A stretch of DNA of 64,000 bases from a virus (taxonomy: Duplodnaviria > Caudoviricetes), in IMG/VR virus record IMGVR_UViG_3300025066_000007; one strand, given 5' to 3'. Below are positions 42,163 to 62,143 of this stretch, piece after piece; within the stretch, counting starts at the first letter, position 1; every line of letters begins with the position of its first letter. The position numbers and the translations under genes were made by a program. The notes under the pieces are model-generated. The model was not told the DNA's origin and searched no databases. It saw nothing but the letters and a program-made list of their open reading frames with translations.

Positions 42163-42838
42163 TTATATTGTAATTTCACCTTTGACGAACCTACTTAGCT
42201 TTTGAGTTTTTCCGGTTCGATGATCGGTCACCTTGTCTCGCTGAACTTGATAAGTCCTTATCTTATCTCCTCTCATTCCAGAGCCAACCTGAGAGGCTCT
42301 CAGCTCAGACCTTCGTCTGCTGGCTGCGCTCCTTTCGATCTCATATAGCTTAGCTCGAAGAAGCCTTAGAGCATAGTCTTTGTTCAAGTGTTGTGAACGC
42401 TCTGATTCGCATCGAATGCTTATTTGTGTTGGAATATGTTTCAGCTGAACGGCAGAGTCAGTTACATTTCTATGCTGCCCGCCCGCTCCAGATCCACGGC
42501 AAGTCTTCCACTCAAGGTCTTTCTTGTCGATCTTTACTGATGCTCTTTTTGGCTCTGTTAGAATTGCAACCGTTATAGTCGAAGTGTGAACTCTGCCTCG
42601 TTTGTCAAGGGGAGAAACTCTTTGCCAGCGATGGCCTCCTGCTTCTTTCTCAAAGATCTTTAAAGCGTTCTTTCCTTCGATCAAAGCTATGCTAATTCCT
42701 GGGCGTGATTCTATTATTTTCAGGCTAAAGATAATTTCGGCGGCAGACCTTGCCGTAAATGCCGAGTTGATCTTTAACAAGAAGTTTGCTTTCTTTTCCG
42801 CCTTCAGCGGCTCTAATCTCTAATATAATAGAATTCAT
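42163..42838 (-). CDS. Class I peptide chain release factor-like protein (domains 2-4), about 224 aa via predicted +1 frameshift
   Basis: Frame 0 from ATG 42838: MNSIILEIRAAEGG...RRNYL*; +1 frame: EAGGHRWQRVSPLD..GRVHTS, GSGAGGQHRNVTDSAV, ERSQHLNK, KIRTY. Confidence 0.88.
42724..42733 (-). other. Predicted programmed +1 frameshift site TAT-CTT-TAG-C
   Basis: Joins the two release-factor halves; same CUU-U slippage core as bacterial prfB. Confidence 0.75.
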
Positions 42839-59571: not shown

Positions 59572-60262
59572 GCTTGGCGACCCACTTTGACTTTAGATTT
59601 CTATTTGCCAATACAAGTGGAAGAAAATCAAGAGGAACCTTCGTTACCATTATGGAAAACGGACGTTTAGCAATCTCCTTCATTATAATCTCACTTAGTT
59701 TCTCGTAACCAAATGGTGCAGCCTCTGCTCCCATGGCTCGAATCTCTGCCATCTTATCGGCAAGCATATCATCCAAACACTCTGCCGGCCCTAGCCTTTC
59801 AAAAACTGTTTTTCGAACAACTTTGTCCTTATCTTTCTTCAAAGATCGCAATACTTTTATAGAGCAGCCTTTAGCCGCAATTCTTCGCTCATTAATTGTC
59901 CCGGACTTTGCTAGCTTGTCAAGGACTTTTATATCCGAGTAAAAGCCATTAGACAAGCAGATCAGCCTAACAGGCTCTGGGCCTGTTAAGAGAGCGCTAT
60001 CTCCGATAGTAGGATACTTTTTTAGTAAGCTAAAAACGAAATCTTTAGCATAGTAGGAGCTCCACCTATGAGAGCCTAAGAGAGCATCATTATAATTCTT
60101 TTTAGAAGCCAGAAGATATCTCGCCTGCTCCTCCGAAGCTCCGCTCTTTAAGGAGTCTACCCTTGAGCGAAAGCTCTGCCAGTTGCCATAGGTGCTAAAT
60201 ACACTTTTTATCTCCTTTACAAATTCGCTATTACTATTACTATTGCTCACAGCATCTATCAC
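59543..60262 (-). CDS. Hypothetical helical-repeat protein
   Basis: 239-aa ORF with HEAT/LRV-like stretches (DKDKVVRKTV..DKMAEIRAM). Confidence 0.65.
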   Translation of the reverse strand: MIDAVSNSNSNSEFVKEIKSVFSTYGNWQSFRSRVDSLKSGASEEQARYLLASKKNYNDALLGSHRWSSYYAKDFVFSLLKKYPTIGDSALLTGPEPVRLICLSNGFYSDIKVLDKLAKSGTINERRIAAKGCSIKVLRSLKKDKDKVVRKTVFERLGPAECLDDMLADKMAEIRAMGAEAAPFGYEKLSEIIMKEIAKRPFSIMVTKVPLDFLPLVLANRNLKSKWVAKLVQQRMEAS

Positions 60263-61127
60263 CTTCCGTTTCTAGTTCATTCATATTTTTTACAAAAAAA
60301 CCCGCAGCATTCTTGTGACCTCCGCCACCAAACTCCAGAGCTATAGTAGACACATCCATCCTATTCTCCTTTGACCTTAATGAAAACCTAAATTTTTCTC
60401 CGTCGAAGTAGTACACCGCAGCAAATTCTTCATCTTCACATAGAATGTTTCCTATTTCCGATTGAAAAGACGAAGAGTTTACTGCAGGAACATTTTCCCC
60501 TGCAATATTTAGACGATGAACATTTGAGAGCATCATCTTCACCAGAGTTTCTTTGTACCTGAGAATATCCCCTCCAGCAGAAACAACCTTGCTCCACGCT
60601 GGAGAGCACGGCTCCCCAAGCTCCAGGCTCAAGCGGTTCCATTCGGAAAAGCTTTTTTTATGCGAATCAACTACAGACAATACCTCTTCGGCCTTATCTA
60701 GCTCCCAAGTCCACAAGTCTCTGTCTTGAATATACCTAAGAAGAGGTGGGACAGGCTTTCTTTTAAAGAGAAACTTCCATGCCAAAACTGCTCCAGATTG
60801 GCTCATATCGAAATGGCAATACTCCAAATCTCCGCAGCTTTCTTGGGAAGTCTTATGGTGGTCAATGACCGTTAGCGTGTTCGCTTCCTCTTCTAACTCT
60901 TCCAATATAGCCCTAGGATAACAAAAGTCAACAATAAATACATCGCGTCCAGTGACCACCGGAGGCTCGTCGCTATGACGAACCGGAACATATTTAGCTT
61001 TCGCTCCATACTTCTGATAAAAAGCCCACGCTGCGCCGAAGCCATCTGGACAGCCGGCATGATAAAGAACCGTTACTCTTGACACTCTACACTTCCTTCG
61101 GGGAATAAGAATACACAATATCCTCAA
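60240..61127 (-). CDS. DHH/DHHA1 phosphoesterase (nanoRNase-like)
   Basis: YHAGCPDG, DFCY, IDHHKT, DRDLW, GGGHKNAAGF. Confidence 0.9.
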   Translation of the reverse strand: MRILCILIPRRKCRVSRVTVLYHAGCPDGFGAAWAFYQKYGAKAKYVPVRHSDEPPVVTGRDVFIVDFCYPRAILEELEEEANTLTVIDHHKTSQESCGDLEYCHFDMSQSGAVLAWKFLFKRKPVPPLLRYIQDRDLWTWELDKAEEVLSVVDSHKKSFSEWNRLSLELGEPCSPAWSKVVSAGGDILRYKETLVKMMLSNVHRLNIAGENVPAVNSSSFQSEIGNILCEDEEFAAVYYFDGEKFRFSLRSKENRMDVSTIALEFGGGGHKNAAGFFVKNMNELETEGDRCCEQ

Positions 61128-62117
61128 TTAAAATACAATTAGCGTTTATCACTTCTGTTATAAAATCACACATAATGTTTAAGCTTGAGAAGGATCGAAT
61201 TAGACCTTCATGAATAAGCTTAAACTTTCCAAACTCTTTTAAGATATCACACTTGCTAATAACTAAATTAGTTGTTCCCGTAAGATTAACTGCCTTAACC
61301 AGATAGTCGAGATTCAGCCAATTAACCTTTCTTGGCCTTCCTGTCGTTACTCCAAACTCTTCTCCCATTTTAGCGATTACAGACAAGTCCTTATCTTCAA
61401 GCAAACTGCTTGGAAATCTCGGATCTTCCCCAGACTTCGTATCATATATCTTTGCAGCGCCCCAAATCGCATTAACCCTCTGAGGCGGAAACCCCAGAGA
61501 GCAAGCGCCATAAGGCAGGGTGATAGAAGAAGTTACATAAGGATAAAGGCCATGATCAATATCAAGCCAAACGCCCTGCGCTCCTTCACACAAAAGCCTT
61601 CCCTCTAACTTCTCATCCCAAATATATTTCGGATCCAATACATCTTTTGCCAAGATTCCAATTCTAGCCGCTTTATCCGCATAGCAAGGGGCTATTCCCC
61701 TGCCCGTAGTTCCAAGCCTTGGAGCCAAATGCTCCTTATCATAGGCTATTTGAGAATCAGTTACGATATGACATTTTGGAGAAACCTTGATCAGCGTAGT
61801 ATCAAATCCATTTTTATCCAAGTAAGAAACCTCTTCTTCAAAGGAGCTTGGATGCAAGATGCACCCAGGGCCAATAACAGAAGTTACTCCATAAAATACA
61901 CCAGATGGAATTAAGTGAGTTTTATACTTTTCTCCATCGACCCATACGGTGTGTCCTGCGTTATTACCCCCTGCCCATCTTGCCACAACATCATAGTTGC
62001 CACTACTCGCCAGATGTGCAGTAATCTTTCCTTTTGCTTCGTCACCTTTTTATGTTGAGATTGACCCGAAGGTCAACCCCAGCATAAACCGACGACAATA
62101 TCTGCCTTATCGATCAT
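61087..62117 (-). CDS. purA: Adenylosuccinate synthetase (short form), about 332 aa via predicted 32-nt translational bypass
   Basis: AGGAG RBS; ATG 62117 gives MIDKADIVVGLCWG, and after the gap DEAKGKITAHL..RWAGGNNAGHT; EGAQG, YPYVTSS, EFGVTTGRPR. Confidence 0.9.
62044..62078 (-). other. Predicted translational bypass (ribosome hopping) element
   Basis: Take-off GGT 62078-76, TGA, 10-bp stem with C(UUCG)G loop, landing GGT 62046-44; 32-nt coding gap. Confidence 0.75.
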
Positions 62118-62143
62118 GCTGAATTCTCCTTTTTGATTTTGGT

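Follow-up and report, generated by a model that had tools for sequence, protein, structure and literature searches.

According to the literature, natural programmed translational bypassing (ribosome hopping) has been documented in few systems: the gene 60 family, the byps of yeast mitochondria and the terminase of a Streptomyces phage. [quoted passage not shown] For the terminase of Streptomyces phage phiHau3, candidate UUA-mediated bypassing has been described, and a junction peptide was found by mass spectrometry (PMC10732093). Here, a similar interruption is described in the adenylosuccinate synthetase gene (purA) of an uncultured tailed virus (Duplodnaviria; Caudoviricetes). The stretch analysed, called the window below, comprises 64,000 nt and is part of the 106-kb IMG/VR record IMGVR_UViG_3300025066_000007; the record is estimated to be 32% complete, and the virus is therefore a jumbo phage. 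A DNA similarity search against deposited phages gave no match to the window. Judging from sequence comparison, the best explanation of the locus, and probably the correct one, is that the phage's only purA contains a site of programmed translational bypassing; full-text literature searches returned no report of bypassing in purA.

A sequence-only reading of the window had described an AGGAG followed by an ATG, 14 codons ending in GGT, an immediate TGA and, after a 32-nt gap, an open frame beginning GAC GAA, and this arrangement was confirmed base for base (Table 1). The gap consists of 29 nt plus a second GGT, or 2 mod 3 in all, and the 5' and 3' parts of purA therefore lie in different frames. 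The 3' frame matches Pfam Adenylsucc_synt PF00709 (4e-77). In an alignment to E. coli PurA (1ade) it begins at residue 13, so that the break separates the Gly12-aligned from the Asp13-aligned residue within the phosphate-binding loop (P-loop). In the window, the zero frame past the stop reaches no purA sequence, and no start codon is present between the stop and the Asp codon, so that re-initiation is disfavoured. One conserved protein is thus encoded in two frames on either side of a non-coding gap, and simpler decoding does not connect the two. An open reading frame (ORF) finder calls a frame of 299 amino acids (aa) from an internal GTG at 61986, without the catalytic loop. It had been proposed that the product of this GTG would be inactive, and the alignment to 1ade agrees, in that the Asp13-aligned residue and the P-loop lysines are absent from it. 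Gene callers truncate such genes in this way, and sites of this kind are consequently mis-annotated systematically.

Table 1. Positions of the purA features in the window.
Feature	Position	Strand	Remarks
Shine-Dalgarno (SD) sequence AGGAG	62126..62130	minus	8 nt 5' of ATG; read in sequence
Start codon ATG of purA 5' frame	62115-62117	minus	read in sequence
purA 5' coding segment, 14 codons MIDKADIVVGLCWG, ends GGT	62076..62117	minus	first strand and P-loop start of PurA
Putative take-off codon GGT (Gly, opposite E. coli Gly12 in the alignment)	62076..62078	minus	GGT in all interrupted variants
In-frame stop TGA, then C, directly after take-off codon	62073..62075	minus	TGA or TAA here in 8/8 variants
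32-nt non-coding gap (stop, hairpin tip, A/U-rich tail, landing triplet)	62044..62075	minus	most relatives lack the gap and read WG-DE unbroken
Proposed landing triplet GGT	62044..62046	minus	first GGN past tip hairpin
purA 3' coding segment, 318 codons and stop	61087..62043	minus	begins GAC GAA GCA AAA GGA AAG (DEAKGK) at catalytic Asp
Stop codon of purA 3' frame	61089-61087	minus
Tip stem-loop, 11 bp, UUCG loop	62056..62081	minus	arms UGGGGUUGACC / GGUCAAUCUCA; take-off codon and stop in 5' arm
Extended fold-back, 25 bp	62039..62098	minus	-29.6 kcal/mol, z = -5.2; 0/200 shuffles fold as well

A scan of viral contigs with the downstream PurA protein yielded 17 loci, and more were obtained by pattern scans of viral and metagenome contigs; an alignment-based scan yielded 80 loci, which belong to a broader family of short PurA-like genes of viruses. 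Most relatives are unbroken and read ...GL(A/C)WG-DE(A/G)KGK..., with GGC, GGT, GGG or GGA as the Gly codon before the Asp. The interrupted subset is made up of the relatives closest to the window, from uncultured jumbo phages, all of which are broken at the identical codon boundary. Eight distinct insert variants were found, and their gaps fall into all three frame classes (Table 2). Because eight variants occur at one codon boundary in independent viral and metagenome contigs, the interruption is neither chance nor an assembly error. A scan of viral contigs that did not demand a stop revealed no stop-less inserts of 8-38 nt at this boundary, and bacterial and archaeal genomes gave only chance matches to the interruption pattern. 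The GGT with its immediate stop is constant, and the stop is followed by C in six of the eight variants; C after a stop is a poor termination context, as in prfB. The last triplet of the gap is a Gly codon in five variants, in which it is also the first GGN after the hairpin tip.

Table 2. Insert variants at the purA break (relatives are given by locus).
Locus	Gap (nt)	Stop	Last triplet	Hairpin tip or form
Window	32	TGA	GGT	CC-UUCG-GG tip
L002	30	TGA	AGC	hairpin same as in the window
L011, L101	29	TGA	AGC	CCC-UUCG-GGG tip
L054	32	TAA	GGT	CCC-UUCG-GGG tip
L003 type	12	TAA	AGT	short form; at least two IMG/VR datasets and two metagenome contigs
L019, L023	12	TAA	GGC	short form
L008, L018	13	TAA	GGC	short form
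L100	13	TAA	GGA	short form

Standard recoding, whether by readthrough, by a +1 or -1 frameshift or through an alternative code, would add residues to the P-loop. The variants with gaps of 12, 12 and 30 nt are in frame, and readthrough of TAA or TGA would join their two parts; however, gaps of 32, 13 and 29 nt occur as well, and with frame classes of 0, 1 and 2 mod 3 under the standard code no single frameshift or readthrough fits the variants. In the window itself the zero frame meets no purA, and extra residues between the Gly12- and Asp13-aligned positions would fall in the phosphate-binding loop. An alternative genetic code was rejected, since all three stops terminate long frames in the 106-kb record and 87% of it is coding under translation table 11. 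Standard recoding is accordingly regarded as highly improbable.

The RNA around the break was then compared between variants. A fold-back on the upstream codons is present in every variant and absent in uninterrupted relatives: fold z scores were -5.2, -3.1, -3.0 and -3.7 for the long forms, -2.2, -2.9, -0.5 and -1.7 for the short forms, and +0.9, +1.2 and -0.1 for uninterrupted relatives. The UUCG hairpin with the take-off codon and stop in its 5' arm, which had been read as a 10-bp stem, was computed at 11 bp. In each variant the insert supplies the loop and the 3' arm, the 5' arm being coding sequence that includes the take-off GGU, and the insert amounts to an imperfect inverted copy of the codons that directly precede it. 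The short forms resemble the long form without its tip, with the lower GGGGU/ACCCC stem retained. At the second base of the stop, the pair is G-C in the window and L002, G.U in L011 and A-U in L054, where the stop is UAA; furthermore, L011 and L054 have one additional C-G pair, gained on both arms. These compensatory changes in the long-form tip indicate that both the stop and the pairing have been kept. Conservation among relatives had been suggested as a check on the element, and the outcome was hairpin and stop in all eight variants, with a covarying tip, and a landing Gly codon in five. At E up to 1, an Rfam search of the element and its surroundings gave no RNA family. Within the 106-kb record, a CCTTCGGG hairpin of this kind occurs at purA and nowhere else, and no other site there clearly combines a stop in a hairpin with a long frame that lacks a start codon; the idea of a mobile hairpin repeated through the genome was rejected on the basis of this single site.

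The geometry of the fold-back bears on how the gap might be skipped. Excision of the hairpin from RNA or DNA is disfavoured, because the needed codons in the 5' arm would be lost with it, and the arrangement would fit a ribosome that has read the 5' arm and then skips the loop and the 3' arm. A related alternative is that the gap is removed from the mRNA, as a micro-intron or by cutting and ligation, and that a continuous purA message is then read normally. Such removal would allow the gap length to vary freely over all frame classes, as is seen, and deletion between TGG G and GN GAY rebuilds the Gly codon in all eight variants; the invariant middle G of the last triplet would be explained without any codon match, the AGY variants included. 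Nevertheless, the 5' arm of the hairpin is coding sequence to be retained, so that a structure-guided cut would have to be asymmetric, the constant stop directly after GGT and its covariation are left unexplained, and there is no Rfam match. To our knowledge, no splicing system for inserts of 12-32 nt exists in bacteria or their phages. Removal of the gap from the RNA is therefore considered quite unlikely.

Whether the interrupted genes are maintained was assessed from codon substitutions. In all nine carriers the downstream frame is complete, at 318-331 aa. Between carriers, nonsynonymous divergence (dN) was 0.18-0.38, and synonymous divergence (dS) either exceeded 1 or was too saturated for an estimate; the pairs with an estimable dS gave dN/dS of 0.07-0.15, a range that matches the uninterrupted relatives. 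The DEAKGK directly after the gap is invariant in protein with codons that vary synonymously among carriers, many positions of the catalytic core are likewise invariant, and the 20 codons before the internal GTG 61986 are conserved at the protein level with synonymous change. On the 5' side, an AGGAG or GGAGG precedes the start codon in all nine carriers and the start codon is kept, and the core of the 5' exon, (A/V)D(I/V)V.GL(A/C)WG, is retained throughout with synonymous differences (window versus L002: five synonymous, one non-synonymous). Four records were checked for further copies, among them a 99%-complete genome whose purA has the 29-nt gap; all four had a single purA and no second, intact one. 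The codon comparisons place both parts of the gene, 5' and 3' of the gap, under purifying selection in all carriers.

An alternative to a functional gap is a dead scar, left by a homing endonuclease or by fold-back repair damage, with no full enzyme made and the 3' frame either decaying or giving a truncated protein, for example from GTG 61986. The insert does resemble an inverted duplication of its flank, as fold-back repair would leave, a homing-endonuclease gene or remnant adjoins some carriers, and the 299-aa frame is the one that an ORF finder calls. However, the downstream frames are intact in nine carriers despite saturated dS, and with dN/dS at about 0.15 or less decay into a pseudogene, the outcome that was to be checked in relatives, is excluded. 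A truncated protein sits poorly with the conservation of the 20 codons upstream of the GTG, invariant DEAKGK among them, and would be without the Asp13-aligned residue and the P-loop lysines; the SD sequence, the start codon and the core of the 5' exon have all been maintained, and each genome checked has one purA. A dead scar is thus unlikely. The proposal of a hop-like element that has to be bypassed for active enzyme gains from the selection, the presence of all frame classes, the constant stop and the covarying hairpin, and is probable on these sequence grounds.

Under the proposed bypass, translation would start at ATG 62117 and produce a 14-residue peptide, and the ribosome would stall, its P site occupied by peptidyl-tRNA-Gly on GGU and its A site by the poorly read UGA-C. 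The UGACC-UUCG-GGUCA tip hairpin would form at the place of the A-site codon, the tRNA would unpair, and the mRNA would be reeled through while the fold-back zips up. Re-pairing would occur on the GGU that lies at the hairpin's 3' foot, with decoding restarting at GAC (Asp13-aligned). The joined product, ...VVGLCWG-DEAKGK..., would contain a complete PurA P-loop, and its predicted tryptic junction peptide is ADIVVGLCWGDEAK. The 106-kb record contains no tRNA genes that might explain the landing. Hopping, its efficiency and a part for the hairpin in it are inferred from these sequence features.

Several observations weigh against bypassing. In L002, L011 and the L003 type, three of the eight variants, the last triplet is AGC or AGT and no cognate Gly triplet precedes the Asp codon, and simple re-pairing of tRNA-Gly does not explain these variants; matched take-off and landing codons, as had been claimed, therefore hold for the window (GGU/GGU) and fail in three variants. 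No other take-off and landing pair for the AGY variants yields a PurA-like junction, and in L002 landing on the in-frame GGU within the hairpin would add six residues to the P-loop. Furthermore, the hairpins of the short forms are weak (z = -0.5 to -2.9), and the nascent chain at take-off has just 14-17 residues, unlike the peptide signal of gene 60, and drop-off is likely for short peptidyl-tRNAs. Finally, no mini-SD (GAG, GGG, GGA or AGG) stands 5-7 nt 5' of the landing triplet; the 11 nt before the landing GGU are CAACAUAAAAA, which is A/U-rich. For landing at AGY, either near-cognate re-pairing is enough, or the foot of the hairpin sets the place, or the gap is removed from the RNA. Considerable P-site latitude has been noted for bypassing (bioRxiv 10.1101/2022.08.31.505936).

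It is possible, although doubtful, that the hop is of a distinct, structure-set type, in which zipping of the fold-back places the ribosome at the hairpin foot, so that RNA geometry and not a matching codon would fix the landing; the inverted codon copy would then be the remnant of an endonuclease cassette. If true, structure-set landing would account for the variants ending in AGY and for the 12-13 nt forms. The eight variants, whose gaps run from 12 to 32 nt and which differ in whether they have the tetraloop tip and a cognate landing codon, constitute a ready natural mutational set for the study of take-off, directional movement and landing.

The purA element would work like gene 60 but falls outside the gene 60 family. 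Both systems have a Gly take-off codon with a stop right after it (8/8 purA variants), a stem-loop with a CC-UUCG-GG tip whose 5' arm contains the take-off codon, an A/U-rich 3' part of the gap, GGN triplets within the hairpin that are not used, and insertion within an invariant motif. [quoted passage not shown] A short form exists in the gene 60 family as well (a 20-nt Aeromonas clade), and, as with MobA, an endonuclease cassette ends at the landing triplet in some purA relatives. In contrast, the gene 60 host is Topo2L, interrupted at Gly46 or Asp45, and not purA, interrupted between the Gly12- and Asp13-aligned residues; no sequence homology extends beyond the generic tetraloop tip; the gene 60 gap is 50 nt rather than 12-32 nt; and about 46 residues with a peptide signal precede take-off in gene 60, compared with 14-17 in purA, which are the ordinary PurA N-terminus and are found in uninterrupted relatives too. 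The purA gap, moreover, is almost wholly an inverted copy of upstream codons, and the endonuclease linked to purA (beside the 13-nt forms) is of another family, DUF7487, with none beside the window copy. Of the gene 60 features, the window has the stop, the stem-loop with that tip, the A/U tail and the matched codons, while mini-SD, peptide signal, host gene and MobA are not shared. The purA family would add a metabolic enzyme to the host genes of bypassing, and take-off after just 14 residues.

Other systems were compared in the same way. Short "stop-hops" in E. coli reporters were reportedly described by Weiss, Dunn, Atkins and Gesteland in 1987, in artificial constructs and at low efficiency; the 12-13 nt purA forms resemble such hops, in which peptidyl-tRNA passes over a stop and lands on a similar codon close by, but the purA sites are natural, conserved and located in an active-site loop. 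The mitochondrial byps of the yeast Magnusiomyces capitatus are similar to the purA element in being short gaps (tens of nt) in conserved protein genes, with a hairpin and an unreadable codon after take-off; their take-off and landing pairs are matched, with some larger deviations tolerated. They differ in belonging to a eukaryotic organelle with many copies per genome, whereas purA has one site in 106 kb of phage DNA and a true stop codon. In the phiHau3 terminase, a phage gene is likewise split at highly conserved junctions and local RNA structure brings the landing site near to the pause codon; there, however, the pause occurs at a rare sense codon tied to host tRNA supply (PMC10732093), in contrast to the proposed pause at a stop within a hairpin in purA.

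The distribution of the interruption was examined in protein trees, in which carriers are scattered among uninterrupted relatives, with about five state changes, at least two of them forced by well-supported branches. L100 (13 nt) is sister to the uninterrupted L014 with support of 100/100. On the 3' side of the gap, L100 is nearest to L014 from the first 90 nt on, at an identity of 0.83 versus 0.67-0.71 to L008, L018 and L003; its 5' exon, gap, intergenic region and divergent upstream gene resemble those of L008, L018 and L003. In L018 and L100 the divergent upstream gene is DUF7487, with a weak TnsA-like endonuclease match and a match to phrog_3339 "homing endonuclease" (1e-16 to 1e-18), and L008 retains only a 28-residue C-terminal remnant of it. 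The mosaic structure of L100 therefore indicates that the 13-nt form moves as a cassette of endonuclease gene, intergenic region, 5' exon and gap, ending at the landing triplet. Next to the window purA or the other long forms, Pfam and PHROGs searches revealed no endonuclease gene. As suggested by these relatives, the window element probably originated from the 3' end of a cassette with a homing endonuclease, one that disrupted the target of this enzyme in the conserved P-loop codons; a candidate DUF7487 target in uninterrupted purA (e.g. L014) would lie at or near TGGGGYGAYGARGC. The end of the cassette at the landing triplet favours the view that bypass gaps arise as protection of endonuclease targets in invariant motifs, or as scars at them.

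The intergenic region of the short forms contains a conserved module of about 60 nt before purA (approximate positions L003:1600-1690, L008:2870-2950, L018:2865-2950 and L100:715-800), located between the divergent endonuclease gene and the SD sequence of purA. It has a CTACTAA/TTAGTAG hairpin whose loop, TGCCTTGG, is complementary to a downstream CCAAGGCA, making a pseudoknot possible, and it has no Rfam match. More DUF7487 genes, of about 500 aa, are found in complete relatives: L243 (G001:C1:55843-59220), L245 (G001:C1:40296-43568) and L244 (G003:C1:59539-62799). No split neighbour of these three was obvious in their flanks, viewed as ORF lists only.

A second gene of the window concerns termination. 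It had been suggested that the purA element ties AMP synthesis to termination efficiency, and this found no support: of two complete relatives that possess a release-factor gene, one has an interrupted and the other an uninterrupted purA. In the window, a release-factor-like gene lies in two frames (42163-42838, minus strand). A 37-codon frame (MNSIILEIRAAEGG...) ends in TAT CTT TAG C, and the +1 frame continues with GGHRWQRVSPL...GGQ, so that the junction is a prfB-like shift site (CTT TAG C), but with UAG. RF2 has SPF where this gene has SPL. The homologues in two complete relatives are open frames of 227 and 236 aa, with no stop within the match.

As to the identity of the enzyme, the window protein is nearer to solved PurA structures (2e-57 to 4e-51) than to PurZ (6e-13). 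PurZ carries Ser14 at the position of the PurA Asp (bioRxiv 10.1101/2025.10.22.683976); the window protein has Asp there, within a G-D-E-x-K-G-K P-loop. PurZ of the diaminopurine pathway was rejected on account of this Asp and of the closer PurA structures, although PHROGs names the family after PurZ. The joined product is, as predicted from its sequence, a short PurA-type enzyme of about 332 aa. A sister group of viral PurA-like proteins (L176-L183, L186-L190, L192 and L195) reads ...ADLSWG DTGKGK..., with Thr for the P-loop Glu, which may mark a different substrate or activity. About 10 nt past the purA stop, a DHH/DHHA1 phosphoesterase gene starts (phrog_4771, 4e-78; window 60240-61073, minus strand), and most of the related loci listed have a frame of similar size (273-295 aa) behind purA, suggesting that the two genes form a conserved unit of nucleotide metabolism. 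Many close homologues of purA (L185, L191, L193, L196-L198 and others) are located on IMG/VR contigs labelled as giant-virus metagenome-assembled genomes (GVMAG); either the gene family is common to jumbo phages and giant-virus-binned contigs, or the bins hold phage DNA.

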